Source: Escherichia phage EP75. From it: a DNA stretch of 64,000 nucleotides. The notes below the pieces were generated by a model. The model was not told the origin of the DNA. It worked only from the letters and a program-made list of their open reading frames with translations, and did no database searches. Location of the stretch: sequence record MG748547; one strand, given 5' to 3'. The translations under genes were made by a program, and so were the position numbers. Within the stretch, counting starts at the first letter, position 1. Each line of letters starts with the position of its first letter. Positions 42,341 through 57,528 of this stretch are shown here, piece by piece.

Positions 42341-43309
42341 TTAGAAGCTGTCGCCTTCGGTATCAAAGCGGCCTTTGTGCAACGGTTCTAGTTCTATAAA
42401 CGTCATGTCGATTTGTGTCGACACGATGCTGTCATCTTTGTGTACAGCATATGAAGAGTCAGGCGTCTCGTTGACAAACATATTTGATAGGACGCAAGTC
42501 GATATCCGATGCAACCATTTGTTGCGTTCTCCCTGGACCATGAACGTGATATCAAACGTGGATGGGTGAAGATAGAATGCGCTGGAATTCTTGTTGTATT
42601 TGTATTCTGGATACATGTGCATCTTGAATAAACGGATAATCTCCCGCACCATTTTCGCCTCTTTTTGCGATCTTGGAGTGAATTTGAATGTGAACGGGAT
42701 TTCTCGGTTGCGCACCCCTTGGAAAATCATCTCCACATACGGGTTGGTCATCGTACCTGTAAACAATTCTAATGTATCATGAGCATTAATTGTCGGCAAG
42801 AAAGGAATTGCTTCCGAAGCAGATTGGATGGCCTTTGTCGCCGCAAATCTCCCCATTTCTTTCCCAACATTCAAAGCATCCCCAAGTTTGAATTGACTCA
42901 TATCTTGGGCGGCGCGTGATAAAAATTGGGCACCCATACCTGCTAATCCCAACTCGGAGCCGTTCCAGCCAACGCCATAGTTGGTTGTAATGGATTCGGG
43001 CATACACAACACAATTGACTCGTTAGAGCGGACATGACGCGCCCAAGCATATTTGCTAATAGACCCCGATTTAGAACCATAAACCACAGGAGTCTTACCC
43101 AATGGATTTTGTATCGGATTTTCGACGGTTTGGGTTGTGGTGTCTCCATATGAAGAACCAGATATTCGGTTGATGTTGAATAGAACATAATGGCCGAGGG
43201 TTTTACCCCCTGTTATGTCTAATGGATAGACCAATTGCTTCTGAGACTTGGCCAAGCCTTTTGTGTTCAGAACTTTGATCTTATCGATGGTCGTCTTGAA
43301 ATTCGCCAT
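42341..43309 (-). CDS. putative baseplate/tail-tube associated protein
   Basis: 322 aa, first gene of the minus-strand late block. Confidence 0.4.
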   Translation of the reverse strand: MANFKTTIDKIKVLNTKGLAKSQKQLVYPLDITGGKTLGHYVLFNINRISGSSYGDTTTQTVENPIQNPLGKTPVVYGSKSGSISKYAWARHVRSNESIVLCMPESITTNYGVGWNGSELGLAGMGAQFLSRAAQDMSQFKLGDALNVGKEMGRFAATKAIQSASEAIPFLPTINAHDTLELFTGTMTNPYVEMIFQGVRNREIPFTFKFTPRSQKEAKMVREIIRLFKMHMYPEYKYNKNSSAFYLHPSTFDITFMVQGERNKWLHRISTCVLSNMFVNETPDSSYAVHKDDSIVSTQIDMTFIELEPLHKGRFDTEGDSF

Positions 43310-43362
43310 GGTCTGAAGCCCTTTAATTAGAATAGAGTGATGACACTATTTAGGACTAGAAT

Positions 43363-44103
43363 ATGGCTATGTATCTCGTATACCAAATTACCAATCTGAT
43401 AAACAATAAAATATATGTTGGGGTTCATAAAGGAACTCCAGATGATGGTTATATGGGTTCTGGCCGAGTTATAACAAGAGCGATATTGAAATATGGTGTT
43501 GAGAATTTTCGCAAAGATATATTGAAAGTTTGTAAAACATCAGAAGAAATGTATGAAGAAGAATTCAGGATAGTGAATCAAGAATTTATAGATAGAGATG
43601 ACACATATAATTTAACATGCGGTGGGCGTGGTTCATTTACGCACATAAATTCGGATCCATTAATCAGGGCCAACGCTTCGGAGAAGGCTCTCAAAACCCT
43701 AAGTTTAAAATCAAAAGACGAATTACAAAGAATTTACAAATCTAGGGGATTTCCTGGAGAAAGAAATTTTTGGTTTGGTAAAAACAGGTCCGGTGAAAAT
43801 AACTCAAGATTTGGCTATGTAATGGAACAAGAAACAAAGGACAAAATAAGAAATTCCAACAAGAAAAGAGTGGAATCCGGCCTCGTGGATTATTCTAATT
43901 GCAAAGGACCAATCACAAAAGAAGGGAAGAACGCAATATCCCAAGCGAACTCCAGAGAATTCAAATTTGTTAATCCAGAAGGAAATTTGGTCACAGTTAT
44001 CAACCTTTCCAAATTCTGTAAAGAAAATGAATTGAGCGAAGGATCTATGAGACATGTCCATAACGGCCGAAACATACAACATAAAGGTTGGAGGAAAGCA
44101 TAA
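43363..44103 (+). CDS. GIY-YIG homing endonuclease
   Basis: N-terminal YLVYQITNLINNKIYVGVH ... GSG matches the GIY-YIG signature; basic C-terminal DNA-binding-like region. Confidence 0.75.
   Translation: MAMYLVYQITNLINNKIYVGVHKGTPDDGYMGSGRVITRAILKYGVENFRKDILKVCKTSEEMYEEEFRIVNQEFIDRDDTYNLTCGGRGSFTHINSDPLIRANASEKALKTLSLKSKDELQRIYKSRGFPGERNFWFGKNRSGENNSRFGYVMEQETKDKIRNSNKKRVESGLVDYSNCKGPITKEGKNAISQANSREFKFVNPEGNLVTVINLSKFCKENELSEGSMRHVHNGRNIQHKGWRKA
43363..44103 (+). mobile_element. free-standing homing endonuclease gene
   Basis: GIY-YIG ORF at a strand-switch point between the late tail block and a nuclease-like gene. Confidence 0.55.
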
Positions 44104-44723
44104 TGGCATCGTATTTACAAGGAAAATTTATTCCCAACAATCCTCAAAAATATGTCGGAGACGTAAAAGATATTGTGTTTCGATCCTCTTTAGAATTGGT
44201 TGCATTCAAATTCTGTGACATGAATCCTGCTATCGTGAAGTGGGGTTCGGAAACTTGTGTAATCCCTTACATATCTCCGGTTGATGGCCGCGCCCATCGT
44301 TATTTCATGGATTTGAAGGTTTGGACTCGTCGGCAGGATTCCGATGAATTACAAATTACTCTTATTGAAATAAAACCCAAAGACCAGATTAAAGAACCTC
44401 GCAAAACTAAAACGATGAAGGAATCAACATTCAATAATTCAATGCGCACTTGGTTGGTAAATCAGGCAAAGTGGACAGCAACTAAAGAACATTGTGCAAA
44501 GGTAGGTTGGAAATTCATTATCTGGACAGAAGAACATTTGGTGCCAGGTGAAGACCCAGAAGTTAAAAAACAATTTGCTCTTCGTTCTAAGAAAAAGCGC
44601 GAAGTCGAAATGGAAGATCGACGCCGCGCTCAAAGGATTAATGCGTTGAAAGAGCAAATGAAGAAGGAAACTGCTAATAAACAACCAACGCAATCGGAAG
44701 ATGATGGTTTGTTATTACCCTGA
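44103..44723 (+). CDS. putative PD-(D/E)XK-type nuclease (possibly head-completion nuclease-like)
   Basis: ATG 44103 overlaps the upstream stop (TAATG); FMDL ... LIEIKPK resembles a D ... E-x-K core. Confidence 0.35.
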   Translation: MASYLQGKFIPNNPQKYVGDVKDIVFRSSLELVAFKFCDMNPAIVKWGSETCVIPYISPVDGRAHRYFMDLKVWTRRQDSDELQITLIEIKPKDQIKEPRKTKTMKESTFNNSMRTWLVNQAKWTATKEHCAKVGWKFIIWTEEHLVPGEDPEVKKQFALRSKKKREVEMEDRRRAQRINALKEQMKKETANKQPTQSEDDGLLLP

Positions 44724-44933
44724 TTTCCTTGGATGTCCAGGGGCAAAGCAAGTTTGTTTGTCCCTGCATATCATCCATCCATCAGCACGGGCTTGTCTAG
44801 CACAGTCTCCCCAAGATTCACCAGCATAAGACTTCATCCCACATCTGGGGTGATGTTCTTGCCAAGCCCAATTACAAGATTTGCATTCAACACACTCACA
44901 ATACAAATCGACGGTGTATCCTGCAGTAATCAT
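44715..44933 (-). CDS. small Cys-rich protein
   Basis: 72 aa with nine Cys (CECVECKSC ... C ... C). Confidence 0.3.
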   Translation of the reverse strand: MITAGYTVDLYCECVECKSCNWAWQEHHPRCGMKSYAGESWGDCARQARADGWMICRDKQTCFAPGHPRKSG

Positions 44934-45341
44934 TTAGTCACCCAGATGATCATAAATTTTTTGACGGAATTCGTTCCCTTTAGCACAACCTGTAGCCAAC
45001 AGGCGAGTACCGCCCGTACCAATAACACTGATGGTCGAAAACTTCAGGATACGGCCTGTAATAGACTGGTCCACCTTAATGGTTTCTACTTTACCAAGAC
45101 GGAGTTCATCAGCATCACGACGAATAAATCCCCGTTTGACAATAACACGCTTGTTGGTGACTGCGAATTCAGTTGTCAATACATTTAAAATTGTTGGTAT
45201 CAGAAATAACAAGCTGAATCCAAATGTTGGGATAATCGTTAAAATAACCAGAACATAAATCCAAAAACCGCTCCACCAAGTCGGGCGGGTGAAAGCGATG
45301 ACATGTTCATTTTCGCCGAGCATGCGGTCTACATAACGCAT
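44934..45341 (-). CDS. membrane protein with bacterial PH (YdbT-like) domain
   Basis: Two N-terminal hydrophobic helices followed by EFAVTNKRVIVKRGFIRR...ISV. Confidence 0.45.
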   Translation of the reverse strand: MRYVDRMLGENEHVIAFTRPTWWSGFWIYVLVILTIIPTFGFSLLFLIPTILNVLTTEFAVTNKRVIVKRGFIRRDADELRLGKVETIKVDQSITGRILKFSTISVIGTGGTRLLATGCAKGNEFRQKIYDHLGD

Positions 45342-45342
45342 T

Positions 45343-45864
45343 TTAATTCCTTACTTTGTCTGGGTTGGATAAGATTTGTTCGTATCCGACTTCGCCTTGA
45401 TCGTCGAAAACATGCTGAAGAATCGCCATATCGTCTACCATCCGATAAACTTCAATTCCAGCGTTCATCAATTTTTTGATTCCATCCATGATACGATATG
45501 GCTCTTGATAATATACTTTATCGATCTTGCCGTTGTCGATGATCTTCTGAGTGCAATCAGGGCATGGGCTATGTGTCACAAACATAACCAACCCTGTGAA
45601 ATCATCTGCATTTTCGGGGATACGCATTAGAGCATTTTCCTCCGCATGAATGACACACGGGTTTGTAACAATTTGCCCGTGTTGTTCCATCTCACAAACA
45701 TTCGGCATGCCAGGAGGCGTTCCGTTCCATCCGATAGCCACAGGCTGATCAGTTTCAGGGTTTACGATAACACAACCGACTTGCAGACGCCGAGCATAAC
45801 TGGTTACACCATATGCTGCAGCTGATCGCATATGGGCGAACATCATTCGTGGTTTGATAGCCAT
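45343..45864 (-). CDS. cd: dCMP deaminase
   Basis: Zinc-binding cytidine/dCMP deaminase motifs HAEENAL and PCPDC; 173 aa. Confidence 0.75.
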   Translation of the reverse strand: MAIKPRMMFAHMRSAAAYGVTSYARRLQVGCVIVNPETDQPVAIGWNGTPPGMPNVCEMEQHGQIVTNPCVIHAEENALMRIPENADDFTGLVMFVTHSPCPDCTQKIIDNGKIDKVYYQEPYRIMDGIKKLMNAGIEVYRMVDDMAILQHVFDDQGEVGYEQILSNPDKVRN

Positions 45865-46181
45865 TATTTTACCAGAGCCTTTTCAAGTAAAAAGATCATG
45901 TCATCCTGGTCGGCGCGGCCAAAGATCTGACCGAGGGACACCATGGAATGAACCTCTTTGACAATCAGGTCTTTGCCTGTTACACCGCTGTTGTCCAATT
46001 CGAGAATTGTAGACATGCGCTCAACCATATGAGGTGGATGATTGATATAACGTTGAAGATACTTTTCACGCAACGCAATTTTTTCGATAAGATCTGACAT
46101 TTCTGCATTCTCTTCTGAATACAGACGTTCTTTAGATTTCAGTTCTTCGAGGCGTTCGTACATTTCTTTTAATGAAATCAT
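45864..46181 (-). CDS. hypothetical protein
   Basis: Start moved to the internal ATG at 46181 (GGGAGAG RBS) because the track's N-terminal extension translates the terminator hairpin. Confidence 0.4.
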   Translation of the reverse strand: MISLKEMYERLEELKSKERLYSEENAEMSDLIEKIALREKYLQRYINHPPHMVERMSTILELDNSGVTGKDLIVKEVHSMVSLGQIFGRADQDDMIFLLEKALVK

Positions 46182-46198
46182 GTTTGTCTCTCCCAATA

Positions 46199-46225
46199 AA
46201 TTAAGGGGAAGTATACCTTCCCCTT
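46199..46225 (-). terminator. intrinsic terminator (minus strand)
   Basis: aaggggaag-tatac-cttcccctt hairpin; T-rich tail on the minus strand. Confidence 0.45.
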
Positions 46226-46244
46226 TCTTCAATAACCTAAAATA

Positions 46245-46595
46245 TTATTCAGTACATGCTTTACCGAGGTCTGTAAGCCTATAGAATGTTACTTCAGACT
46301 TCGGCCAATGCTTATACTCTTCAGAGTTGTCATGAACCATTGTAAACGCAGGTTCTATCAGACCTTTAGACAACAAGGATTGACCTGAACGCGTATCCCA
46401 TGGATCACCCTTTACAGAACGAAACCCGCCAGATATCGGTGGCGCATGAAAAGTCCAAACCGTTTTCCCTTTATCGTTCGTCCAAGATTTGGGATTGAAA
46501 TACCAATGACAAAGGCGTCTGGCTTCACCTTTTTCAAAATTCAACATTCCTAAAAGGACGCAGAGTTGATGTCCTGTGATTCTTGGCTTTTTCAT
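46245..46595 (-). CDS. hypothetical protein
   Basis: 116-aa ORF. Confidence 0.45.
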   Translation of the reverse strand: MKKPRITGHQLCVLLGMLNFEKGEARRLCHWYFNPKSWTNDKGKTVWTFHAPPISGGFRSVKGDPWDTRSGQSLLSKGLIEPAFTMVHDNSEEYKHWPKSEVTFYRLTDLGKACTE

Positions 46596-46963
46596 AATAT
46601 ATCTCTCTTCTTCAACATGCGTTCCACCTCTGGCCAGTTCACGCAGGGGCGATTGGAAACTTCATCCCATACCAGAGGGCAGCCAAGAGCGGCGTCGTCG
46701 ATGTAAACCTGGGCATATGCCTTTGGAGACTCCGTCCAAGTCTTCTGTGATGGGTTTGTATTAACTCCATACAGAGGGATGCCACGGACATGGAACCAGG
46801 TTTTCGCTTGCTCCAATTCCGCACCAGAACGCATCGTGAACAAAATCAGCTGATGCCCTTTGGCAACGAGCCTCTTCAGGCAGGCATCAGCACCGATGTC
46901 CCGCCCGACCTTTGGGTATTCGTGGGTCACACAAGTCCCGTCAAAATCCACTGCAATGATCAT
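46592..46963 (-). CDS. HAD-superfamily phosphatase (small)
   Basis: N-terminal IIAVDFDGT (DxDGT nucleophile motif); 123 aa. Confidence 0.5.
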   Translation of the reverse strand: MIIAVDFDGTCVTHEYPKVGRDIGADACLKRLVAKGHQLILFTMRSGAELEQAKTWFHVRGIPLYGVNTNPSQKTWTESPKAYAQVYIDDAALGCPLVWDEVSNRPCVNWPEVERMLKKRDIL

Positions 46964-47292
46964 AAGATCCCCAAGTCAGTAAGGTAACGATAAAACAAGA
47001 TTATAGACAGAAATCCAATTAACACCCAAGACGACAGGATGGGCTTGCAATTTAGCGTAGTCTTTCCATTGGGTATGTTGGGACTTCCAGTAATAACAAC
47101 CGAATCCGTTTTAGCTCTCAGCGTCATGACAGAACCCATGAGGATGATTGGGCGCACATAATGCCCTTCATGATTGCGCTTCACGATACATGGTGAAGAA
47201 AATCGCAGGAACGGATCACCGCTTTTATAACCAAATAACTCGACCTTTTGTATTTCTTCGGGTACTTTCTGACCAGGAAAGAATATTTTCAT
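46960..47292 (-). CDS. hypothetical protein
   Basis: 110-aa ORF, ATGA overlaps on both sides. Confidence 0.4.
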
Positions 47293-47867
47293 AGCACAAT
47301 TCCTAAATTTGTGTATAACAACTCAGCCAGGGTTACAGGACGCTTGAATTGTTCCCAACTGCAGTTCAGGTATTCGCGCTCTTCGCGAATATTTTCGTGA
47401 AGATGACCATGGATATTATACGCCCAACGGTCTAATTGATAAGGAACATGTGTTGTCAACACACGGCCAACAGGCGTGTCACGTTCATACATAGCGCCGA
47501 AGGAGCTAATCCAGCCGTCCAGATACAGAGACAACAACATCTTAAAGCTGTCATGGTTGCCTTGTGCCACCCTGATGATAAAGTTCGGACGCCAGTCATC
47601 GGGAACGGGGCGGCGTTTGAACTCATCAATGTTTCGCTTGGCACCCTCTCGCATCAGGCGAATGAACCCTTCAGCCCCGATGAAGCATATATCACCAGCC
47701 AGTTCAAGAACGTCCCGAGACTTCAACCCCTGAAAGATACTGTCAATGACCGCAGCGTCATGGGCTTCCTGTGTATCAAATCCACGCGGTTTAAAGACCT
47801 TCTTATGCCCAAGATGAGTGTCACCAAGGTGCTTTACAATTCCCGCCATTATGGTTTCCTCAGCCAT
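47289..47867 (-). CDS. calcineurin-like metallophosphoesterase
   Basis: GDTHLG, GDICF, GNHD, GHLH motifs; start may be the ATG at 47849. Confidence 0.6.
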
Positions 47868-48190
47868 TCTAAAATCGGCACTTTCACAAACCCTTTATGC
47901 CAACGATGCGGTTTGTGACCTCTATTATATTCGAGCAAACACGTGTCTGGTGGGACACTGAAGTGGATGCCTTCGATGTCGTAGTAATGTCCGTCAATCA
48001 GAGTATACACATGACCTTCGATCTGGCTGTAATGGATCTCTGCTTGAGGATACACATGCTTCAGAACCAGAGCAACCTGATAGCACTTTCCGTTCTTCCC
48101 AACATACTCAACATCCACCTGTTGTGGGAAGACGTCTTTGATAAGATTTATCAATCTCGTGATGTCATTTACAACAACTGAACGTTTCAT
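47849..48190 (-). CDS. hypothetical protein
   Basis: 113-aa ORF. Confidence 0.4.
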
Positions 48191-48192
48191 CT

Positions 48193-48855
48193 CTATGATA
48201 ACTCATGGCGATGTCGAACACACGCAGGACAATCACAATTCTTTTTCAAAATTGGCAATTCACACCATGTCATTAAGTCATGTATTGGGGACATGTGATG
48301 ATAGAACCAAGATTTCTTGAGACTAATCAATGGATATAAAATTTCAATAGATCTTTCCCCGTCTCTGGTCATCATGTTGTATCCTTCAATAACTTTATTA
48401 AAGGCGGGTATCCAGTGTATTGCGTCATCGCCGTTAACATATGCCAAGATATACGTGGAAGGCAAGCCACTGCCTTTAAATTGCGTGTTTAATAACCATA
48501 TCGGGGCTTGTGCTAAACAAGCGCGAAAACCACCGTTCGGGACGTTGATGCTACTGATAGGTTCTTGATGATGTGTCCAACGATACATGAGAAGTGGGGC
48601 ATTTTTATTAATCCAGTTGTATATTTTATTCCTCGCCCAATTTTCGCGTTTAGATTTAAATTTATTATTTTCGAGGTGGCAATACACAGTATGAACTGAA
48701 TATCCTTTCGATAGCAACCAAATCAACATGTATGTGCTATCCACCCCACCAGACCAGAACAACGTCACTTCTTGATTATTCTGCGGCAATGGAGCATCCC
48801 CTTGAAGAACACGGTATACAAAATCACAATCAGATATTGAGACAACAATTTCCAT
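48193..48855 (-). CDS. PP-loop ATP pyrophosphatase, QueC-like
   Basis: N-terminal SGGVDST (SGGxDS); C-terminal cysteine cluster C-x8-C-x-C-PAC resembling the QueC zinc site. Confidence 0.5.
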   Translation of the reverse strand: MEIVVSISDCDFVYRVLQGDAPLPQNNQEVTLFWSGGVDSTYMLIWLLSKGYSVHTVYCHLENNKFKSKRENWARNKIYNWINKNAPLLMYRWTHHQEPISSINVPNGGFRACLAQAPIWLLNTQFKGSGLPSTYILAYVNGDDAIHWIPAFNKVIEGYNMMTRDGERSIEILYPLISLKKSWFYHHMSPIHDLMTWCELPILKKNCDCPACVRHRHELS

Positions 48856-49151
48856 TAAAATATTCCTCTTAAAGAATCATTTATCCTGCGCAATTCGTTT
48901 TCCACTTTTATCTTCATATTTTTATCGTCGTTCACGAAAATCATTTTATCTAAATCTTCGCCATTAATCTTTGTATAAAAATAAATGTCATGCTCAAAGA
49001 AAATCGTTTTTCCAACAGAACGCATGGCAAAGAACGTTGCAATAGTTCTTGGTAAAGGTTTGAATTTAATGGCATTGAAACGCAAAGCCTGATAGAGAGG
49101 TTTTAATGTTCCTAAGCGAATACAATGCTGGATAATTTCTTGCTCTTTCAT
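48855..49151 (-). CDS. hypothetical protein
   Basis: 98-aa ORF. Confidence 0.4.
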   Translation of the reverse strand: MKEQEIIQHCIRLGTLKPLYQALRFNAIKFKPLPRTIATFFAMRSVGKTIFFEHDIYFYTKINGEDLDKMIFVNDDKNMKIKVENELRRINDSLRGIF

Positions 49152-49194
49152 TTGTTGTGCGCCATAAAGATATGATGGTACAATGATAATACAT

Positions 49195-49226
49195 TATACA
49201 AATAGAAAAGCCCCTTTCGGGGCTTA
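49195..49226 (-). terminator. intrinsic terminator (minus strand)
   Basis: aagcccc-tttc-ggggctt hairpin with T-rich tail on the minus strand. Confidence 0.45.
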
Positions 49227-49514
49227 TTTGTCTTCAGATTCGTATAAACGCCAATTGCCGATGCTAAACCACTCCCCCACATTATTTGAATATCTGGTTG
49301 TTCGGACTCCTCCGACTTCATACGCCCATTTGAAGAATTTCCATTTGGACGATAAAGAAGGACATTCGCTTCCGGATTTCAAAGAACACGCTGTGAGCCA
49401 ACGCGTAATACTGAGAGCCTGAAAAATCGGATGGATAAATGAAGAATACAATATCCAAAGCGTTATGGCAACAAAAACAATGGTCGTGATCACCCCGACA
49501 ATTTGAAAGAACAT
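49224..49514 (-). CDS. small membrane protein (putative)
   Basis: 96 aa with N-terminal hydrophobic helix; frame choice uncertain. Confidence 0.3.
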   Translation of the reverse strand: MFFQIVGVITTIVFVAITLWILYSSFIHPIFQALSITRWLTACSLKSGSECPSLSSKWKFFKWAYEVGGVRTTRYSNNVGEWFSIGNWRLYESEDK

Positions 49515-49590
49515 TTAAGAACCTCCAAAATATTGAACACAGACTATGAAGAAAACTATGATTGTAAACAACCATGAAACAAGGAAAGAT

Positions 49591-50223
49591 TCATCCTTCC
49601 ACCTTCAGCCCCATCAGGTCTTCCATGGTTTTCTGAATGCGTAGCCAGTCAAGCGCCGCATCATAACGAGGGTCATGATAGATCATACCTTCCAGTTCCC
49701 ACGCCTTGATACCAGCATATCGATCCTGCTGCCCAATACCCTTCAGCCAGCTTACGATGTCAAATGTGTGGTGATAGTCCCAAGGTTCGTTGGAATCTTG
49801 CTTACACGTCACCTCAATGATGTGCTGAGCCTTGCGTAGGTCAAACAGATTCCTATCACACCAGTCAACCGATCGCGGGTCGATCCCAAGGCGATGGCAT
49901 CCCTTGCGAATTTCATCGGCCAATTTGAAAATAGAAATATCCTTGTCGGTCGGATATAGACTGATAGCTCGGGCGGCGTCGCACGGGTTGCGTTTACCTG
50001 TACCCAGCCACCATTCCACAGTGCCCTGGTCTTTCACACGGCCAAGTTCAATCTGTTCTTTGACATCCAGTTTGATAAATGTCGTGCGCTCTACAACAAG
50101 CTGCTGAAGAGTATAACGCTTGGTCAGGTCGGCGATAGTCTGTGCCCAAGACAACATGACAGCATCATCCCAACGACCGAGAGTTTCGCTATCAGCGACG
50201 GCCAAGAAATTAGATTTATACAT
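49591..50223 (-). CDS. DEDDh 3'-5' exonuclease (DnaQ/DexA-like)
   Basis: Exo I motif AVADSETLG (D-x-E) and exo III motif YHDPRYDA. Confidence 0.55.
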   Translation of the reverse strand: MYKSNFLAVADSETLGRWDDAVMLSWAQTIADLTKRYTLQQLVVERTTFIKLDVKEQIELGRVKDQGTVEWWLGTGKRNPCDAARAISLYPTDKDISIFKLADEIRKGCHRLGIDPRSVDWCDRNLFDLRKAQHIIEVTCKQDSNEPWDYHHTFDIVSWLKGIGQQDRYAGIKAWELEGMIYHDPRYDAALDWLRIQKTMEDLMGLKVEG

Positions 50224-50560
50224 CAGTTTCCCCTGCTTTCTCTAAAAGGAGTTTCAAAGGATATGTCCCACAAGCGGTGGCATACTCGACTTTGAAATAT
50301 GAATTATCGTTCATGGCGAAATTGCGATGTGGGAAATATTCCCCGTCATCCAACCCGCCTAATCCCCCGCCGACGCGATATTGTTTTAACTCGACTTCGC
50401 CGCCATAACGGAGTTGGGCATATAGGCCGATAGGAGCGCGAACGTAATGCTCCAGCCATACCCAATTTCCATCGTGTAAACGTGTAGGGATAAATGCAAA
50501 ACGCACCTTGGGATGAAGAACGGCTTTGGCGAGCATCTCTTCTGTTATTTCACGCTTCAT
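50216..50560 (-). CDS. hypothetical protein
   Basis: 114-aa ORF. Confidence 0.4.
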   Translation of the reverse strand: MKREITEEMLAKAVLHPKVRFAFIPTRLHDGNWVWLEHYVRAPIGLYAQLRYGGEVELKQYRVGGGLGGLDDGEYFPHRNFAMNDNSYFKVEYATACGTYPLKLLLEKAGETDV

Positions 50561-51177
50561 CCAATACCTTCCTCTTCGATGATATCTTCTTCACTAGCGA
50601 CGACAGAGATTCCGTAGTCTACCATCTGGGAAAGTTCTTGTAAATCTTGTTCAAACCCGTCACCCTGTCGGATATAAAAGACGGGTACGACACGACGCCT
50701 GGTATCTTCGAAGATAGTCTCCGCGATTTTATTAATCTGACTCACCACGTGAAACAGTTTTAATCCACCGATGCCACAGCCGATGGCGGGTAAACCAACA
50801 TAGACTGTTTCGTCAGTTTTTGCCTCAATGATATCGTGAACTTGTTCAAACATAATCTGAACTGAACTGATAATGGAAGGCATGCGTGCGTTAGGACCAG
50901 GGTAGAACTGAGTATACAAATTGAATCCCCAGACACCAGTGTCATGATCAAACGCATAGGACATGTTCCCCAAACGTTGTTCCGGACCACGTTCATCTAA
51001 TTGGTCGGCTCGGTAAATTTCTGGGAAATCTAATCGAACATGGTTGGCGATACCTGCGCCCATCACAGACCAACAATTTGCTCCATGAGCGAAAGCATTG
51101 ATGAGATTAAAACTCGTAGCGGCTTTCAGTAAATCGCCGTTTGTGATAACATATGTGGTCATGCGTAACGTCTCCAT
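50557..51177 (-). CDS. macro-domain protein (ADP-ribose binding/hydrolase-like)
   Basis: INAFAHGANCWSVMGAGIA and GLPAIGCGIGGL resemble the two glycine-rich loops of macro domains. Confidence 0.5.
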   Translation of the reverse strand: METLRMTTYVITNGDLLKAATSFNLINAFAHGANCWSVMGAGIANHVRLDFPEIYRADQLDERGPEQRLGNMSYAFDHDTGVWGFNLYTQFYPGPNARMPSIISSVQIMFEQVHDIIEAKTDETVYVGLPAIGCGIGGLKLFHVVSQINKIAETIFEDTRRRVVPVFYIRQGDGFEQDLQELSQMVDYGISVVASEEDIIEEEGIG

Positions 51178-51395
51178 TGTATAATTTCGTTGTTGACACA
51201 GCTAACCTGGATGATACACATATTCTGGCGATGGTCAGTGAGTGTCATAATAAAACTGTCTGTCTGTGCCATAACACAATTGACAGATATTCCTCGCATT
51301 ATCAAACGAACACAGATTTCTTGATATAATCGTTTCATGTATCCTGAAACTGAAGCGGACTCATACACGCGTTCAAATTCATATAACTCGTTCAT
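51159..51395 (-). CDS. hypothetical protein
   Basis: 78-aa ORF. Confidence 0.3.
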   Translation of the reverse strand: MNELYEFERVYESASVSGYMKRLYQEICVRLIMRGISVNCVMAQTDSFIMTLTDHRQNMCIIQVSCVNNEIIQWRRYA

Positions 51396-51616
51396 TTATT
51401 CAGACCATCAATAGCGTGTTCAGAAATATATTCAACGAATTGGTTATCAGCTGCCATCTTTAAAAGTTCAAATAATTCCGTTCCAACGGTACTCCCAAAC
51501 ATCCCTTCCAATACACCCTGAACATCTTCATCTATTTCTTCGATGACGAGTCCATACGATTTCAGGCGGCGTGAAATAGCACGGAACTGGGCAATATCAC
51601 CAATTTCATTTGCCAT
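51392..51616 (-). CDS. hypothetical protein
   Basis: 74-aa ORF. Confidence 0.35.
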   Translation of the reverse strand: MANEIGDIAQFRAISRRLKSYGLVIEEIDEDVQGVLEGMFGSTVGTELFELLKMAADNQFVEYISEHAIDGLNK

Positions 51617-51665
51617 GTTATTTGTCTCATTATGGGGTTAGGCGGCAATTATACCGCCAATTTAT

Positions 51666-52079
51666 TCAATAGAGGTCTTCGGAAAAGAGTTCTTTGAAAG
51701 GAGTGTTCTTCAAACGGACCTGATTAGTTTGTCCGGCTTCACGAGCGACCACAGCAGCCTCTTCACGGGACATCCATTGCCCATAGTTATCAATAAACCC
51801 TTGTTCACGAGTGTGGGTGGTTTCGATAATACCTGCTTCCTTCAATCGTTTGAGTTGCGTGTTCATCAATTTGTCGTGATGTCGGGCGCTTACAACGATC
51901 ACATCACCATATTTGTTGGCAGCAGCCACAACACGCCGATCAAACTTGGTTGGGTCAGGTATATCACGAGTATACAAGGCGATGTGAGTGTCGTCCACGT
52001 CCCCTTTCACCTCAGAATATAACTGACACCCATTAGGAGATCCAGTAGGTAAAGAACGAAAATATCCAAGTAATTTCAT
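51666..52079 (-). CDS. hypothetical protein
   Basis: 137-aa ORF. Confidence 0.45.
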   Translation of the reverse strand: MKLLGYFRSLPTGSPNGCQLYSEVKGDVDDTHIALYTRDIPDPTKFDRRVVAAANKYGDVIVVSARHHDKLMNTQLKRLKEAGIIETTHTREQGFIDNYGQWMSREEAAVVAREAGQTNQVRLKNTPFKELFSEDLY

Positions 52080-52082
52080 AAT

Positions 52083-52394
52083 CTAATCTATCCATATTTC
52101 AGGTTCGGGGATATCAACCATCTCCACCGTTTGATTCTTTAATTCGTGGAAACAGTCACCAAGGAATTGTAATTTACCATCAGTCAAGAACAAATGACAA
52201 CGACTCGCCGGATCAGAATGATTCACCAACAGACTAGGAGTGAAAGTCGGTGATTCGAGATCGTGATTCCATTGCCATATTGGGCCAGGCGTTTGCCCTG
52301 AAATGCGATAAGGATGAAGCATATTACATCCAGGACAATGAAAATATATGGAACCACCCATTGATAATAATTTTGGAGTCAATAATTTTGACAT
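52083..52394 (-). CDS. hypothetical Cys/His-rich protein
   Basis: Internal start MSKLLTPK; CPGCNMLHPY ... RCHLF ... GDCFH. Confidence 0.4.
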   Translation of the reverse strand: MSKLLTPKLLSMGGSIYFHCPGCNMLHPYRISGQTPGPIWQWNHDLESPTFTPSLLVNHSDPASRCHLFLTDGKLQFLGDCFHELKNQTVEMVDIPEPEIWID

Positions 52395-52395
52395 A

Positions 52396-52674
52396 TCACG
52401 CCTCCACTTCTTCATCAGGATTGTATGGGCGTAATTCTCCAATTAACTTAGGGAAGAGGGCAAACCCGAACAGATTAAAAGAACGCATGGTCCCAACCAT
52501 ACCAACATCATCCAATTCGGTAACGTCAGAAAGGGCACACAACGGTATCCACACGTCTTCTTGTCCTTCGTAATTTACGAAGGCAACTTCCTCTTTAATA
52601 AAACGAGGGCATAAGATATCGAACAACCAATAGAAGAAAGTCAGCAATGAGAGACTGCGGAAATATACAAACAT
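52396..52674 (-). CDS. hypothetical protein
   Basis: Internal ATG at 52674 preceded by AAGGGG; the track's GTG at 52707 has no spacing to its RBS. Confidence 0.35.
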   Translation of the reverse strand: MFVYFRSLSLLTFFYWLFDILCPRFIKEEVAFVNYEGQEDVWIPLCALSDVTELDDVGMVGTMRSFNLFGFALFPKLIGELRPYNPDEEVEA

Positions 52675-52716
52675 GGTGAACCCCTTGCTTGTTTGGAGGG
52701 AATTCACCCTCCGGAT

Positions 52717-54042
52717 TTATAGGCCCAATGCCTTTTCAAGATCATCTAAATCTTCAGTATAAAGATCGATGTCTTGCTTATTATTTAATTCTTCTCGTTG
52801 AACTTCTAAATTCTTTATCTGGTTCAACAAACGTTCACGTGCGTCTAACGTAATTGATGATAAAGACATCTTGAATAAATCATCGAGATCGCCATCAAAA
52901 TCAGGATAGTCTGTCTGGAATAACGCTTTCAGTTCCGTGAGGCTCCGGCGCATATCTGTAACGACAGCCCACCCAATGAATATGGCACGATTGTTCAAAC
53001 GGTGTATTTTGTCGGTCAATTCCTTGATAAGATACTGACGTCTATCTTCATAGCGACTCAGGCGATAATTGAAAAATGGAAGCAACATGTCTTTCCAACC
53101 ATCATAACGGTGAATAACACCATCTTCATCCCAAGCTGTCCACACGGGCTTATTAGCTGAGTAGAGACGGAACATCTGTTCAACCTGTTCGTCATTCAAC
53201 TTAGACAATTCACCCCGCTTGAATACAACAGTGATATCCCAACCATCTTCGGTCGTATCGTTGGCGTACTCAGTGAGGACACCCGCCTTGTACAGGGGCA
53301 ACAGCACTTTGGTCTCATAGGTTTTAGAGAACCAACCAATAGGAACCTCGGTGATGTTCAAAGTGGTTGCATTAACGCGGGTGAACAAACCACGGCTGTA
53401 TGCTCTTCCTTCCTCAGTATAGCCCGTTTCTCCTTTGAAACCATTCCAGTACGGTTTTAAGTCTTTCGGGTCTTCGCCACGGAGAAGCGCTCTCAGGGCA
53501 CTGAGCACGGACTTAACGGAATGGCATGGGGTGTCGGTGGCATAACCGGAGCCGATACCATTGATACCATTCACGAGAAACATGGGCAGGATGGGTAAAA
53601 AGAATTTCGGCTCTAGTTTCTCTTCCCCAAGATAATTGTATTCCAATATCCCATCGTCCTCCTTTCGGAAGATTTTACGGATAACTTCAGACACTGCCAC
53701 TGAAATATAACGAGCGGAAGACGCTTCGCGCCCCATGATTGAACCAAACTGTCCGTCGCGGTCAAAGTATGGGATGTTATTCGTACCTGGGAACCCCTGA
53801 GCCATGTTCACAATAGTGCCGCTCATGTTCTCGCCACCAGATTTGTAGTTGGTGCGGGCGGCGGCGAACATGCCAAGGCGGTCAACGATCTCCTCCTTGT
53901 TGTACTCAAGAGCAGCAAAGAGGATCTTGCGCTGGCTGGGCTTGAGGCTGTCGATCAGTTGAGGGATTTGACGGATGCTGTTGACCACAGAGAACTCCTT
54001 GTGGTCACCATTTATGAAATCCGTCACGGTAATAGTCGTCAT
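52717..54042 (-). CDS. 52: DNA topoisomerase II medium subunit (T4 gp52-like, GyrA-type)
   Basis: 441 aa; SSARYIS region consistent with the catalytic-Tyr segment; adjacent to the gp39-like gene. Confidence 0.6.
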   Translation of the reverse strand: MTTITVTDFINGDHKEFSVVNSIRQIPQLIDSLKPSQRKILFAALEYNKEEIVDRLGMFAAARTNYKSGGENMSGTIVNMAQGFPGTNNIPYFDRDGQFGSIMGREASSARYISVAVSEVIRKIFRKEDDGILEYNYLGEEKLEPKFFLPILPMFLVNGINGIGSGYATDTPCHSVKSVLSALRALLRGEDPKDLKPYWNGFKGETGYTEEGRAYSRGLFTRVNATTLNITEVPIGWFSKTYETKVLLPLYKAGVLTEYANDTTEDGWDITVVFKRGELSKLNDEQVEQMFRLYSANKPVWTAWDEDGVIHRYDGWKDMLLPFFNYRLSRYEDRRQYLIKELTDKIHRLNNRAIFIGWAVVTDMRRSLTELKALFQTDYPDFDGDLDDLFKMSLSSITLDARERLLNQIKNLEVQREELNNKQDIDLYTEDLDDLEKALGL

Positions 54043-54488
54043 TTATCGTATCCCCCTAAATTAAATACGTCCACTTGGTAATCGACCAACCAAGATACCA
54101 GTTTAATCGCTTGTTCCGATTCATCTGATTCATCAAGAGTGTAATATGGTTTACCCGTCCCTTTAAGCGGGTCATACACCACCAATTTACCATCTCGAGT
54201 GTCCAACAATATCTGATGTAATATGCCAGGGGAAGTCAGGGAAGGGGCGACCAGGACATAAACATAATCGTGATAAATCGTTATATTTTGATTAGCCCCA
54301 CGCCCAGCTATAAATGGCACACCATTGAGATGCAGTGCGTCACCAATAGTCATCTCAAATGATTCGAATGAATCATGGAATTCGTCAATAACATTCTGTA
54401 CAGGGCGGTCGAGAATCATGGCCAAACACGCAGACATACAAGTGTTGCCTGTCGGTTGTTTTTGGTGTACTAATGGATTCAAAACCAT
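54039..54488 (-). CDS. papain-like cysteine peptidase-like protein (C39-like)
   Basis: Q-x5-C (QPTGNTCMSACLAMIL) with downstream His (HQILL) and Asp (VYDP); internal start MVLNP. Confidence 0.35.
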   Translation of the reverse strand: MVLNPLVHQKQPTGNTCMSACLAMILDRPVQNVIDEFHDSFESFEMTIGDALHLNGVPFIAGRGANQNITIYHDYVYVLVAPSLTSPGILHQILLDTRDGKLVVYDPLKGTGKPYYTLDESDESEQAIKLVSWLVDYQVDVFNLGGYDK

Positions 54489-54489
54489 C

Positions 54490-56403
54490 TTATTCCCCTT
54501 CCGTTTCAAATAGGCAAACGTCGCTAAACCAGGTTTTGCGGTAGTCGGCGGCCTCATCACCGAAGCCATTCTTCAGTGACTGTTGATAGCCATCGTCCAG
54601 CGTGACCGTCGTAGTATACGCATCCAGGTTGTTTAGAATACGCTTGAAGTCTTCAGTGCTGTTACCGCCAAGACCTTTCAGATATTTATTCTTCGTGATC
54701 TTCTTGGCGTCAGGTGTCTTCAGGAACTCCTCATACTCGGTGTTGTTCATGAACTCATGCATCACCTTACCACACCACACGCGCATGTATGGAGTACGAA
54801 GGAGCTTCAGCCTACCCTGACGAACGTATTCAGGCCAGAACGTACAATACAGAGTTATTAACAACCCACGGATATGAATGCCGTCGTCATCCGCGTCTGT
54901 TGCCACGACGGTCTGTGGATAGCGACTGATATCAAGCGGCTGGCCTGGCACAGCACCGCCGTGAATGGTGCATAAATTCTTGAATTCTTCGTTCGCCATC
55001 ACCTTTGAGCGCGGGGCGTTCAGGCAGTTGATGAACTTACCACGAAGCGGGAACAAACCAATTTTCTTGGTATCACGAGCGTTCAGGATAGGGTTGGATG
55101 CGCTATCACCTTCTGTCAGTAGCAGCGAACACCCACTGCGGTCGCCTCTGGCGGTCGCCGGATAATACTTCTCAATCTCACGATAATCCCGTTTGCTGAT
55201 ATCCTTCTTCGCCTTTTCAAATTCGGCATCTTCTTGTTCATTGCGTAATGAAGCCAGTTCTTTACTCAGCCCTGCTGTCACGAACTCAAGCGCCTTGCGA
55301 ATCAGTTTATCGCTGGGCTTGTAGGACGTACCAAACTGGCTCACAGGAGTCGTCATGCGCTCCTTGGTCTGGCTGTCAAAGCGAGGGTTGTTGATGTCGG
55401 CGGCGATGAACAATGACATGTGGTTCTTGATCATCGCTGGCTTCAGTTCGGTCTTGAACTTCTTAACCAGCTGAGGGCGTATAGCCGCCACGATCTGGTC
55501 AGCAACATAATCAACGTGAGGTCCACCGATGTGCGTGGCGATTGAGTTCACGTATGATGCATGCATGAACGCACCAGATGAGGGAGTGATAGCAACAGAC
55601 CAATCATCCGTTTCATCAACAGCCGAGCCAGCGTAGAAGTAATCAACGAAATGACCAAATCGATCAATGCGGATTTGCTTGCCGTTGAGAACAACCTTCA
55701 GGCGCGGGTTGCATGCCGCCACTTCGAATGCACGACGGTAAATCATGAGCAGGTTGTTCTGGTCAAGCCCCTTAACACCCAGGCGCGCATAATCAGGGAT
55801 CCAGGCAATAGTGGTGCCGAACTCTTTCGGTGTATTGCCGATGACCGGATTGGACTTCTTGCTCATGTTGTCTTCAAACAGCTGAGTATAAGACTTCTTG
55901 CCGTCACTGGTAGCAACGCGGAACCACTTTGAGAACACGTTGACGAGCGAAGCCCCTTCACCGTTCTGGCCGCCGGACTTCTGGTTGTTGTACTCCTCGT
56001 CCTCATCGTTGAAGTTGCTGCCCGCATAGAGCGAGCCAAACAACATCTCAGGGAGCCACTCATTGGTGACGCCATGCTTGACCACAGGGATACCCCCGTT
56101 GTCAGAAACGATGATTTGACCGTTCATAGGGGAGACCGTGACGGTGATTTCCGTCAAGCCTTTACCCTCAGGGGTCTTGCTGTGGTCAACACAGTTGGTG
56201 ATGATTTCATCAAACTGTTTGATCAGCGCAGGGGAGTACTCAAAGTTGTCACGGAAGATGACTTTGTCTTTGGTTGGGTCATACACCCACACCGTCCCCA
56301 CAGACGAACGGATACTGCCCAGATGACGCTCTGGGCGAAGTAGGATATGCTCTATGTGAGTGAGCTTTTTGTATTTGCGTTCAATATCAATTTTGTTGGA
56401 CAT
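54490..56403 (-). CDS. 39: DNA topoisomerase II large subunit (T4 gp39-like, GyrB-type, contiguous)
   Basis: 637 aa; TOPRIM EGDSA motif (SLLLTEGDSASN); GHKL-ATPase-like N-terminal half. Confidence 0.75.
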   Translation of the reverse strand: MSNKIDIERKYKKLTHIEHILLRPERHLGSIRSSVGTVWVYDPTKDKVIFRDNFEYSPALIKQFDEIITNCVDHSKTPEGKGLTEITVTVSPMNGQIIVSDNGGIPVVKHGVTNEWLPEMLFGSLYAGSNFNDEDEEYNNQKSGGQNGEGASLVNVFSKWFRVATSDGKKSYTQLFEDNMSKKSNPVIGNTPKEFGTTIAWIPDYARLGVKGLDQNNLLMIYRRAFEVAACNPRLKVVLNGKQIRIDRFGHFVDYFYAGSAVDETDDWSVAITPSSGAFMHASYVNSIATHIGGPHVDYVADQIVAAIRPQLVKKFKTELKPAMIKNHMSLFIAADINNPRFDSQTKERMTTPVSQFGTSYKPSDKLIRKALEFVTAGLSKELASLRNEQEDAEFEKAKKDISKRDYREIEKYYPATARGDRSGCSLLLTEGDSASNPILNARDTKKIGLFPLRGKFINCLNAPRSKVMANEEFKNLCTIHGGAVPGQPLDISRYPQTVVATDADDDGIHIRGLLITLYCTFWPEYVRQGRLKLLRTPYMRVWCGKVMHEFMNNTEYEEFLKTPDAKKITKNKYLKGLGGNSTEDFKRILNNLDAYTTTVTLDDGYQQSLKNGFGDEAADYRKTWFSDVCLFETEGE

Positions 56404-56452
56404 CGGCCTATCCCGTCAATGGTAAACACACAAGATTATGTATGGGGTTGGC

Positions 56453-57031
56453 TTATAGACCAAATTTAGTGCGCCATTTTTCCACTTTGTGTTCTATGGC
56501 ATGTTCCACTTTAACGATCGTGTTGATATGGTTTTGATTATATCCACACGCCAATTTGGCAGTATTGCGTATCAGATTTGAAACCAGGTCCACCATATTA
56601 TCTTCTGAACGTTGAGGTTGGTTCAGTAAACGAGTGATGCGGCCTTTGTAATGATTAACCATCGCAAGATATTTGTCTATAGTTTCAACACCACTGCAGA
56701 ACCAATAATCCTCCAACGTATGTTGGCTGAGATCAGTTGTGTGATTGGCCGTAGCCAAAGCAAACACCATGGAGTCAAAGATTTCTTCTTTGGTCATAGA
56801 CCCATGTTGTTGAACTTGTTGATAATCCACAACATATAATAGATCCAGAGCCGAGATGATAACGTCCGCCACTTCACCGTTCAGGGGTTCGGATGCAGCG
56901 ATTCCATAAAGCACATCTGATAGTTCACAAGACTCTTCCACGAGTTTGCAATATACAAACACAGGAGAACGATTAGGATCGCGCTGGCTGAGTTCATATG
57001 ATGTGTTGAAGATAGTTTTTAGAAAATTCAT
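56453..57031 (-). CDS. MazG-like nucleotide pyrophosphohydrolase (putative)
   Basis: LVEESCELSDVLYG ... NGEVADVIISALDLL fits E-E-x2-E ... E-x2-D spacing. Confidence 0.35.
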   Translation of the reverse strand: MNFLKTIFNTSYELSQRDPNRSPVFVYCKLVEESCELSDVLYGIAASEPLNGEVADVIISALDLLYVVDYQQVQQHGSMTKEEIFDSMVFALATANHTTDLSQHTLEDYWFCSGVETIDKYLAMVNHYKGRITRLLNQPQRSEDNMVDLVSNLIRNTAKLACGYNQNHINTIVKVEHAIEHKVEKWRTKFGL

Positions 57032-57528
57032 TTCAAATATCCTTCTAGACGGAAGCGGTTAATATGCTGTATGATAAAATCCATAGAGTTTTGAAAACTG
57101 TATTTCCCCTGATGCTCATATGCATGAATAAGGGGAAGACGGCTGTGGGCCAATTGGAATCTCAACTTGGATGGCATTGTCAGCAATTTTTGACTCGTCG
57201 CTGCGATAATGTCTCGTTTAAATTTGGGATCATCAGGGGACAATACAACGATGCGTGACTTGGCCAGGGTTTGTCCAAATTGCTTGGCGTCGTTCCCGTA
57301 AAGACTACGCAAGTCGTCGTGGCGATATTTTAGCCAATACCAGTAGCCTTCTATTGAGTTGAAATTACCATCAACAGTATCCATGGGATGGTATGCAAAA
57401 TGGGAAAGGAATCTGCCTAGTTCTGTGCGACTTCGACTGTATATGTTGTAATGGGTCTTACCTTCACTATCCGGCGTCATACGTTCTTTTGGAACATTGA
57501 GTAATGGGAGCATGATATAGGGTCTCAA
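57028..57528 (-). CDS. hypothetical protein
   Basis: 166-aa ORF. Confidence 0.45.
   Translation of the reverse strand: MRPYIMLPLLNVPKERMTPDSEGKTHYNIYSRSRTELGRFLSHFAYHPMDTVDGNFNSIEGYWYWLKYRHDDLRSLYGNDAKQFGQTLAKSRIVVLSPDDPKFKRDIIAATSQKLLTMPSKLRFQLAHSRLPLIHAYEHQGKYSFQNSMDFIIQHINRFRLEGYLK

Follow-up and report, generated by a model that had tools for sequence, protein, structure and literature searches.

The subject of this analysis is a block of genes at positions 44715-52707 (7,993 bases) of a window of 64,000 nucleotides from Escherichia phage EP75 (sequence record MG748547), the window being the whole stretch of DNA that was analysed. An open reading frame (ORF) listing together with a scan against the PHROG families placed 20 co-oriented genes, all on the minus strand, in this block, which is ~97% coding and has only four intergenic gaps (63, 72, 76, and 49 nt, counted from the ORF coordinates). 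Over its entire length, the block shares 99.7% identity with Salmonella phage aagejoakim; for well over 100 further Salmonella and E. coli phages the identity is 95-99%, and at least 80% of the block is covered by 159 of the 226 matching public records. Among the matches are aagejoakim, CBA120, Det7, and PhiSH19, members of the genus Kuttervirus (the former 'ViI-like' phages), and the gene order of the block is the same as in CBA120. On sequence similarity, the source phage belongs to Kuttervirus, family Ackermannviridae, and is only T4-related; Ackermannviridae have replication and morphogenesis genes in common with T4, yet form a separate family. The block, which extends from the topoisomerase II genes to a convergent gp4 gene, is best read, with a probability of about 0.7, as a minus-strand set of non-structural Kuttervirus genes in which a conserved backbone is accompanied by lineage-restricted cargo swapped by recombination. 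The genes (g01-g20) and the two boundaries are as follows, with values in e notation being E values and enzyme names denoting predicted activities.

Left boundary, 44103..44723, plus strand: gp4 head-completion gene, convergent with the block; phrog_218 'head closure', 3.5e-57; annotated in aagejoakim and CBA120.
g01, 44715..44933, minus strand: 72 aa, Cys-rich; phrog_926, 2.2e-26; ratio of nonsynonymous to synonymous substitution rates (dN/dS) 0.10; in Kuttervirus, Agtrevirus, Limestonevirus, and Taipeivirus.
g02, 44934..45341, minus strand: bPH_2 membrane protein, backbone; Pfam PF03703, 1.7e-12; phrog_3707; hydrophobic at 22-40 and 42-60; in all six genera.
g03, 45343..45864, minus strand: dCMP deaminase (cd), backbone; Pfam PF00383, 5e-17; phrog_174, 4e-64; HAE and PCxxC motifs; in all six genera.
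g04, 45864..46181, minus strand: 105 aa; phrog_4059, 8e-58, matched from residue 18 of the long ORF; frame open to 46232; 318 nt in aagejoakim.
g05, 46245..46595, minus strand: 116 aa; phrog_4677, 1.3e-65; its C-terminal half is the remnant at the Limestonevirus deletion junction.
g06, 46592..46963, minus strand: cap-less HAD-type phosphatase (BT0820-like); NCBIfam NF046079, 3.4e-25; PDB 2obb, 5.8e-15; in 2/11 Kuttervirus loci.
g07, 46960..47292, minus strand: DUF7618 protein; Pfam PF24594, 7.8e-53; C-terminal hydrophobic segment 82-100; only in Kuttervirus and 2/4 Agtrevirus loci.
g08, 47289..47867, minus strand: metallophosphoesterase; phrog_547, 2.6e-43; alternative start 47849; GenBank label Ser/Thr phosphatase.
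g09, 47849..48190, minus strand: phage YunG-like protein; Pfam PF24591, 1.1e-42.
g10, 48193..48855, minus strand: QueC-like PP-loop ATPase; phrog_1550, 9e-82; C-terminal Cys cluster.
g11, 48855..49151, minus strand: 98 aa; phrog_9302, 1.1e-67; present/absent slot, in 6/11 Kuttervirus loci.
g12, 49224..49514, minus strand: 96 aa; phrog_2531, 3e-38; N-terminal hydrophobic segment 1-19; fast-evolving, 38-60% identity between genera.
g13, 49591..50223, minus strand: DexA-type 3'-5' exonuclease, backbone; phrog_255, 1.1e-53; PDB 8kel, 1.4e-5; 72-93% identity across the five genera having the gene.
g14, 50216..50560, minus strand: 114 aa; phrog_5613, 2.7e-71; patchy across genera.
g15, 50557..51177, minus strand: stand-alone macrodomain, homologue of T4 Tk.4 (AdfM), from an AlphaFold2 (AF2) model, profile, and BLASTP; annotated start 51162.
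g16, 51159..51395, minus strand: DUF7234 protein; Pfam PF23881, 2.6e-40; divergent allele (50% identity) in Kuttervirus locus L011.
g17, 51392..51616, minus strand: 74 aa, acidic; phrog_5924, 1.1e-51; not found in Agtrevirus loci.
g18, 51666..52079, minus strand: T4 Arn.3 homologue, backbone; T4 Arn.3 match, 2e-19.
g19, 52083..52442, minus strand: stand-alone DUF6527/BubE-family protein; annotated start 52394; Pfam PF20137, 1.4e-13.
g20, 52396..52707, minus strand: ~92-103 aa; phrog_2241, 3.8e-39; GTG start at 52707, preceded by a GGAGG resembling a Shine-Dalgarno sequence; found in five of the six genera.
Right boundary, 52717..54042, minus strand: topoisomerase II medium subunit (gp52 homologue), upstream of the block; phrog_551, 6e-176; annotated in aagejoakim and CBA120.

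A sequence-only reading of this DNA had placed about 20 short minus-strand genes between a homing endonuclease and the topoisomerase genes. The gene count, the strand, and the topoisomerase side are borne out; the left neighbour is gp4, with the endonuclease lying one gene further out. All 20 genes match a PHROG family, at E values of 2e-26 to 9e-82. dN/dS was estimated per gene by the Nei-Gojobori method against the divergent Kuttervirus loci L012 and L009 and against Shigella phage Ag3 (Agtrevirus, L003), and was found to be ≤0.21 in every estimate with at least 10 substitutions, with most values at 0.01-0.15; values of up to 0.27 occurred where the estimate consisted of only 2-4 differences. 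Orthologues have been kept at 38-90% identity across genera. All 20 genes are under purifying selection and, because of the PHROG matches and the low dN/dS, all are regarded as real coding genes, g01 included. These results make it scarcely credible that many of these short ORFs are spurious and that the figure of 20 is an ORF-calling artefact in AT-rich DNA, a view that could draw on the several ORFs shorter than 100 aa, on the lack of annotation for g01 (44715-44933) in the closest GenBank records (aagejoakim and CBA120), and on two ORFs in the region that are truly spurious. The latter, at 49148-49321 and 49318-49575, lie across g12 in different reading frames and have no PHROG match.

The division into backbone and cargo comes from 28 gp4-to-topoisomerase intervals of Ackermannviridae, 7 taken from annotated records and 21 from IMG/VR via gp4 alignment, over which the presence or absence of all 20 proteins was scored by tblastn. 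Only the bPH protein, the dCMP deaminase, DexA, Tk.4, and the Arn.3-like protein were found in every genus bar Limestonevirus. Across the family, these five would make up the backbone layer, usually together with the metallophosphoesterase, the PP-loop ATPase, and g20, which are usually present across genera. The remaining genes are limited to one to four genera and would form the cargo layer—that is, about a dozen small lineage-restricted genes lying between the backbone genes and gained, lost, or swapped by recombination. In Miltonvirus, Nezavisimistyvirus, and Taipeivirus, the corresponding positions hold ORFs unrelated to these genes, the replacements in the first two including a 500-aa adhesin-like protein; for ten cargo ORFs from relatives, no significant Pfam family was found, only one weak helix-turn-helix match. 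Within Kuttervirus, the variable genes are g06, encoding the HAD protein and the most variable slot (2/11 loci), g11 (6/11), g17 (10/11), and g19 (10/11), and three loci carry an extra 134-aa gene between cd and g04. The comparison did not return the pattern that the sequence-only reading had named as contrary to an accessory region, in which the genes would be conserved one for one, with orthologues of known function, in every relative: only 5 of the 20 genes occur in every genus other than Limestonevirus. Since the block is nearly invariant within the genus, the term 'accessory' holds at the family level only. A review of Ackermannviridae has no content on this region.

The family-level variability is most pronounced in Dickeya phage LIMEstone1 (Limestonevirus, locus L005), in which the gp4-to-topoisomerase interval spans only 2.2 kb. 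There, tblastn showed residues 17-83 of g19 (L005 11873-11676) to be joined to residues 49-113 of g05 (L005 11724-11539). At L005 11539-11873 (positions 13456-13790 of the LIMEstone1 record), a truncated DUF6527 gene (ORF017, 79 aa) runs into an unannotated g05 remnant. This junction reads as the scar of a single deletion of ~5.5 kb, in which g06-g18 (13 genes) were lost; no homologue of the 13 missing genes was found at E ≤1e-3 in the 98% of the LIMEstone1 genome examined. Limestonevirus has lost DexA, the macrodomain, both phosphatases, the PP-loop ATPase, and the Arn.3-like protein, and the genus therefore lives without them. Judged from this natural deletion, the central part of the block is dispensable in one genus.

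Furthermore, the divergence of the block differs sharply from gene to gene. Synonymous divergence (dS) in a single pairwise comparison ranges from <0.07 to >1.1 between genes a few slots apart. Against L009, for example, dS was ≤0.05 for g10 (0.047), g12, g16, and g17 and 0.07 for g18, with values of 1.1-1.7 for g02, g08 (1.24), and g14; against Ag3, the HAD protein of g06 shows 95% amino acid identity with a dS of 0.30, its neighbours being saturated. Such patterns point to alleles having often been exchanged in gene-sized units, in some cases between genera. Two segments, 46592-48190 and 49591-50223, are Ag3-like, with the HAD, metallophosphoesterase, YunG-like, and DexA proteins 92-95% identical and dS at 0.3-1.0. 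The genes flanking these segments show only 60-74% identity and saturated dS, and the contrast indicates that the Ag3-like segments were therefore exchanged recently between the genera.

Exchange of this kind proceeds gene by gene and not en bloc, which makes it very unlikely that the block is a mobile genomic island, horizontally acquired and inserted as a unit. The recent between-genera exchange of the HAD gene could be cited for such an island, as could the homing endonuclease nearby and the 67-72% DNA identity of g09 and g19 to genes of Av-05, 19-1-2, and 9NA (phages under other names). The same flanks and backbone order in all six genera already contradict it, and the G+C fraction of the block (~0.43) is like that of its flanks (0.43-0.46). 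A search for flanking direct or inverted repeats returned short, chance-level matches only, the block contains no integrase and no tRNA, and Rfam gave nothing in 43000-57500. The island was consequently rejected on its lack of boundary repeats or a mobility gene, its flank-like composition, and the synteny in six genera. The endonuclease itself, a GIY-YIG/NUMOD3 homing endonuclease at 43363-44103 on the plus strand, lies between gp48 and gp4, with its 3' end abutting the start of gp4. It is not in aagejoakim or CBA120, was found at the same site in 3/11 Kuttervirus loci (99% identity), and occurs also in one Taipeivirus locus (84%), in LIMEstone1 as F-LimII (72%), and in one Agtrevirus locus (64%). 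This sporadic distribution suggests spread across genera, as is typical of homing.

A block of recombining, partly dispensable small genes next to the gene 52 homologue invites comparison with T4, in which the stretch just downstream of gene 52 contains motA, arn.4, arn.3, arn.2, arn.1, arn, and asiA. The two intervals both consist of small co-oriented genes, mostly non-essential, among replication genes. Each is a mixture of metabolic genes with genes for host takeover and anti-restriction, each undergoes turnover through insertions, deletions, and recombination, and an Arn.3 homologue is encoded in each. Indeed, g18 occupies the same relative position as T4 arn.3, just downstream of the gene 52 homologue. 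Four genes of the block, cd, dexA, tk.4, and arn.3, have T4 homologues; these are scattered in T4, whereas they are gathered in the Kuttervirus block. T4 has MotA, AsiA, and Arn, whereas the Kuttervirus block is without homologues of them, the same lack having been stated for CBA120 (PMC3184105). The structural model of g18 has a mean predicted local distance difference test (pLDDT) score of 85.5 and no structural neighbour in PDB. Because the model has no PDB neighbour, the GenBank label 'C-N hydrolase' for g18 was regarded as unsupported and set aside; the label 'calcium-binding hemolysin' for g17 was likewise set aside, with no Pfam match to support it.

A 'plastic periphery' of T4-related genomes was reportedly described by Comeau et al. 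in 2007. In contrast to T4 plastic regions, the Kuttervirus block varies far less within its genus than the variability at the family level would lead one to expect. The description of the block as an accessory island, of the kind in which anti-defence and host-takeover genes gather in T4-like phages, thus holds in part: the block varies at the family level, can be deleted, and includes one Tk.4/AdfM homologue, but it is nearly fixed within the genus, encodes in part plain nucleotide metabolism (cd and DexA), and is not mobile. With Ackermannviridae as the family, 'T4-like' is loose, though not absurd.

Seven domain calls made from the sequence alone (dCMP deaminase, bPH, HAD, metallophosphoesterase, QueC-like, DEDDh exonuclease, and macrodomain) are all supported by profile, motif, or model evidence. 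The dCMP deaminase and bPH_2 proteins both pass Pfam thresholds, and g03 (PF00383, dCMP_cyt_deam_1, 62 bits) contains the zinc motifs VIHAEENA and SPCPDC of the cytidine deaminase (CDA) fold in its translation. In g06, the superfamily motifs DFDGT (residues 6-10) and YIDD are present; its score against the BT0820-type HAD model of NCBIfam, 89 bits, is under the equivalog cut-off of 165, the PDB entry that it matches (2obb, 5.8e-15) is the solved BT0820 protein, and no Pfam match was found. The translation of g08 contains GDTH, AGD, GNHD, THV, and HGHLH in this order, which are all five metallophosphoesterase motifs of the superfamily, and gave a weak NCBIfam PdeM match (0.0019), with no PDB match by phmmer and no Pfam match even at E 10. 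Residues 9-207 of g13 match PDB 8kel, 'Exodeoxyribonuclease' (227 residues), over its full length (1.4e-5), which places g13 in the DexA family; from its length alone, we take 8kel to be T4 DexA. In Miltonvirus (L006 6235-7170) and Nezavisimistyvirus (L007 4741-5682), the dCMP deaminase gene has ~311 codons (cf. phrog_20648) versus 173 here, and an extra domain is therefore fused to Cd in both.

In Kuttervirus-type phages, thymidine is replaced via a dUMP hydroxymethylase route. The dCMP deaminase would supply dUMP for this thymidine-replacement pathway, and DexA would trim DNA. These predicted roles bear on an alternative that we consider unlikely while giving it some weight, namely that the block is a nucleotide-precursor module for modified-thymidine DNA, with the small ORFs auxiliary and without a defence role. 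The genes cd and dexA are classical T4 genes of nucleotide and DNA turnover, HAD and metallophosphoesterase folds often act on nucleotides, and the topoisomerase genes and a gene for a MazG-like pyrophosphatase are next to the block; in CBA120, the dCMP deaminase was listed with the nucleotide-metabolism genes, and labelled thymidine was not incorporated by the phage (PMC3184105). However, Limestonevirus, a viable genus, retains cd but no longer has DexA, the PP-loop ATPase, or either phosphatase, and only 2/11 Kuttervirus loci carry the HAD gene. Four predicted membrane proteins have no obvious nucleotide role, and the T4 homologue of the macrodomain has a genetic anti-DarTG2 phenotype, all of which argue against a module serving precursor supply only.

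The macrodomain of g15 is a member of the backbone for which a counter-defence function can be proposed. Its AF2 model, built with 48 homologues, has a pLDDT of 95.6, and the top Foldseek matches were TARG1 (4e-9), Poa1p (1e-8), and DarG (2e-8), in keeping with a TARG1/DarG-class fold. A profile search against PDB found the Mycobacterium tuberculosis DarG macrodomain best (3.9e-13), with no Pfam match above threshold. Homology with T4 Tk.4 was detected by BLASTP (1e-18, 38% identity), and the g15 family profile aligned with Tk.4 of the T4-like phage ime09 at 99.9% probability (hhalign, E 1.9e-35). The motifs AHGxNC, NLYTQ-PGPN, and IGxGIxG are common to g15 and T4 Tk.4, the annotators of Ag3 and CBA120 named the gene 'Tk.4', and Tk.4-like genes were found by tblastn in 2,724 phage records. 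In T4, tk.4 was the single gene depleted from a transposon library on a DarTG2 host, and a clean tk.4 knockout was DarTG2-sensitive, whereupon the gene was named adfM (preprint, bioRxiv 10.1101/2025.11.20.689424). Independently of the T4 work, the chimallivirus macrodomain AdfM (PhiKZ gp104) was shown by biochemistry and genetics to strip DarT2 ADP-ribose from DNA (PMC13309987, 2026); its likeness to g15 is by description, not by sequence comparison.

Like AdfM of T4, g15 is a stand-alone TARG1/DarG-class macrodomain and has all of the invariant family motifs, differing by its identity of 38% and by ~45 extra C-terminal residues. In comparison with the DarG antitoxin, g15 has a similar macrodomain but is without the C-terminal DarT-binding domain, an adjacent darT gene, and the catalytic lysine. 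Specifically, the PADLOC DarG match of g15 (2.8e-10) covers only positions 4-136 of the 329 of the model, a span without the DarT-binding domain, and the neighbours of g15 are g14 and g16, both small proteins, with no adjacent darT gene. By homology, g15 thus belongs to a family for which a role in counter-defence has been demonstrated, its own role being predicted, and is a candidate enzyme for removal of ADP-ribose from DNA. The macrodomain probably clears host DarT2-type ADP-ribose from phage DNA, as reported for the T4 homologue, and the small cargo genes probably serve to adjust interactions with the host, the remaining genes being candidates for host interaction or counter-defence.

Several observations weigh against the picture of a conserved backbone with exchangeable, host-directed cargo. 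First, 16 of the 20 genes are present in 11/11 Kuttervirus loci, and at least 10 of the 20 (about half) have no inferable function, in agreement with the sequence-only reading, which had called the genes outside its seven domain calls uncharacterised. Second, sigma-70-like promoter matches are at chance level (33 versus 29.9 ± 4.4 expected), and the early promoters of ViI-like phages were not identifiable (PMC3184105). Third, the invariant Gln90 of g15 (in NLYTQ) aligns with the catalytic Lys of FPTK in DarG and LITK in TARG1, and Poa1p, an ADP-ribose-1''-phosphatase, is an equally good structural match. The catalytic lysine of Thermus DarG is presumably K80, the counterpart of TARG1 K84; T4 Tk.4 has the same Gln at this position. 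Because of this invariant Gln at the catalytic Lys position, the chemistry of the g15 family is not simply DarG-like and may differ, and g15 as a true DarG-type hydrolase with a catalytic lysine was rejected. Finally, the anti-DarTG2 finding in T4 was published as a preprint, and the protein studied there shares only 38% identity with g15 (bioRxiv 10.1101/2025.11.20.689424).

With respect to expression, we infer solely from gene order and the non-structural products that the block, which runs in the same direction as the topoisomerase genes, would be expressed before replication; the literature yielded no transcriptome of a Kuttervirus or of CBA120. Terminator-like hairpins are mildly enriched (20 versus 12.2 ± 3.7 expected). 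The two cleanest G+C-rich hairpins with T-runs lie at 46203-46225, in the gap 46182-46244, and at 49208-49225, in the gap 49152-49223, the second being symmetric and followed by a TATAAT-like sequence. Both are putative and may possibly represent terminator or promoter punctuation inside the block.

A further counter-defence candidate is g19, which matches Pfam PF20137 with 51 bits, above the gathering cut-off of 23.6 (E 1.4e-13); the same family is carried by 105 of 106 g19 homologues. In a family alignment of 31 sequences, C20, C23, S54, C66, H67, and H83 are invariant and C81 is nearly so. DUF6527 corresponds to BubE, a serine protease cleaving ubiquitin-like conjugates, in Bub operons that are suspected defence systems, and BubE has a C4 zinc site (C57/C59/C61/C99) and a Ser-His dyad (S92, H102) (2024 preprint, bioRxiv 10.1101/2024.11.21.623953). 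The g19 family keeps the same kind of residue set (four Cys, Ser, and two His), a likeness of composition without residue-by-residue mapping, and the first Cys pair is CxCxC in BubE versus CxxC in g19. Unlike BubE, which belongs to an operon encoding a ubiquitin-like protein (Ubl), E2, and E1 (BubA, B, C, and D), g19 is stand-alone in phages or prophage-like DNA: its neighbours in the block are g18 and g20, not BubA-D. The contexts of five g19 homologues were all phage-like or prophage-like, and no neighbour in them matched a recognised E1, E2, or Ubl family, many of these neighbours having no Pfam match on record. A literature search on BubE in phages returned only unrelated papers. One may speculate from these similarities that g19 is a candidate counter-defence enzyme, an 'orphan off-switch' co-opted by phages.

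In one of these contexts, a 2.57-Mb bacterial contig (L058, 6001-6675), a BubE-family gene sits immediately upstream of one encoding an Acb2/Tad1 hairpin domain (PF24729), in prophage-like surroundings containing DUF932, DUF2786, and a phage Dam-like methyltransferase. Acb2 counteracts CBASS, and Tad1 counteracts Thoeris. The two genes may form an anti-defence gene pair.

The third protein reminiscent of a defence component is g10, in which the PP-loop superfamily motif WSGGVDST is present at residues 34-41, with G36, G37, D39, S40, and T41 invariant in four orthologues. Its PP-loop region is also matched by QueC, ThiI, MnmA, and argininosuccinate synthase profiles, the Pfam QueC match (4e-05) covers the PP-loop part only, and PADLOC gave QueC at 1.1e-6. 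A profile of the four orthologues found Cap9 (9nto_B) best, at a weak 9e-4, and QueC (3bl5) at 0.02, near full length. Assignment of g10 as a QueC equivalog was rejected, with 17.8 bits against the TIGR00364 cut-off of 150.3. Thus, g10 has in common with the QueC family, including Cap9 of type IV CBASS and QatC of QatABCD, the SGGxDS PP-loop, the C-terminal Cys cluster, and a weak profile likeness, but is far under the equivalog score of QueC and is without its pathway genes nearby: no further deazaguanine-pathway gene was found in the block and its immediate flanks, the rest of the window and genome not having been screened. The terms 'phage-encoded', 'viral', and 'phage genomes' do not occur in a paper on the QueC family (PMC13329287), and the PADLOC scan gave no matches beyond those of g15 (DarG) and g10 (QueC). 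Taken together, it is conceivable, if rather doubtful, that the block collects orphan enzymes derived from components of bacterial defence systems that have off-switch or accessory roles, with g15 being DarG-like, g19 stripping Bub/Bil-type conjugates, and g10 interfering with deazaguanylation-dependent CBASS or Qat. In this set, g19 could be the newest part, as no ubiquitin-like-stripping counter-defence was found in the literature searched.

As a whole, the region is ordinary, being already annotated in hundreds of public genomes, and current understanding of Ackermannviridae phages is unchanged by these findings. Interest lies mainly in two testable candidates—that is, g15 against DarTG2 and the stand-alone BubE-like g19 against ubiquitin-like conjugation systems—and the outputs are a map assigning each gene to backbone or cargo and the natural 13-gene deletion of Limestonevirus. 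Ackermannviridae are widely used in biocontrol and typing of Salmonella, E. coli O157, Klebsiella, and Dickeya, for which a map of dispensable versus defence-neutralising genes helps host-range prediction and phage engineering.

Beyond the right boundary, a variable ORF (phrog_4049) was observed at 54039-54569 on the minus strand, between two topoisomerase II subunit genes, with 176 aa from the longest start and 132 aa as annotated in aagejoakim. Its N-terminal 'QKQPTGNTCMSACLAMIL' resembles by eye the motif of C39-type papain-like peptidases, with no Pfam, PADLOC, or PDB match backing this resemblance. The ORF is full length in 5/11 Kuttervirus loci and absent from CBA120.

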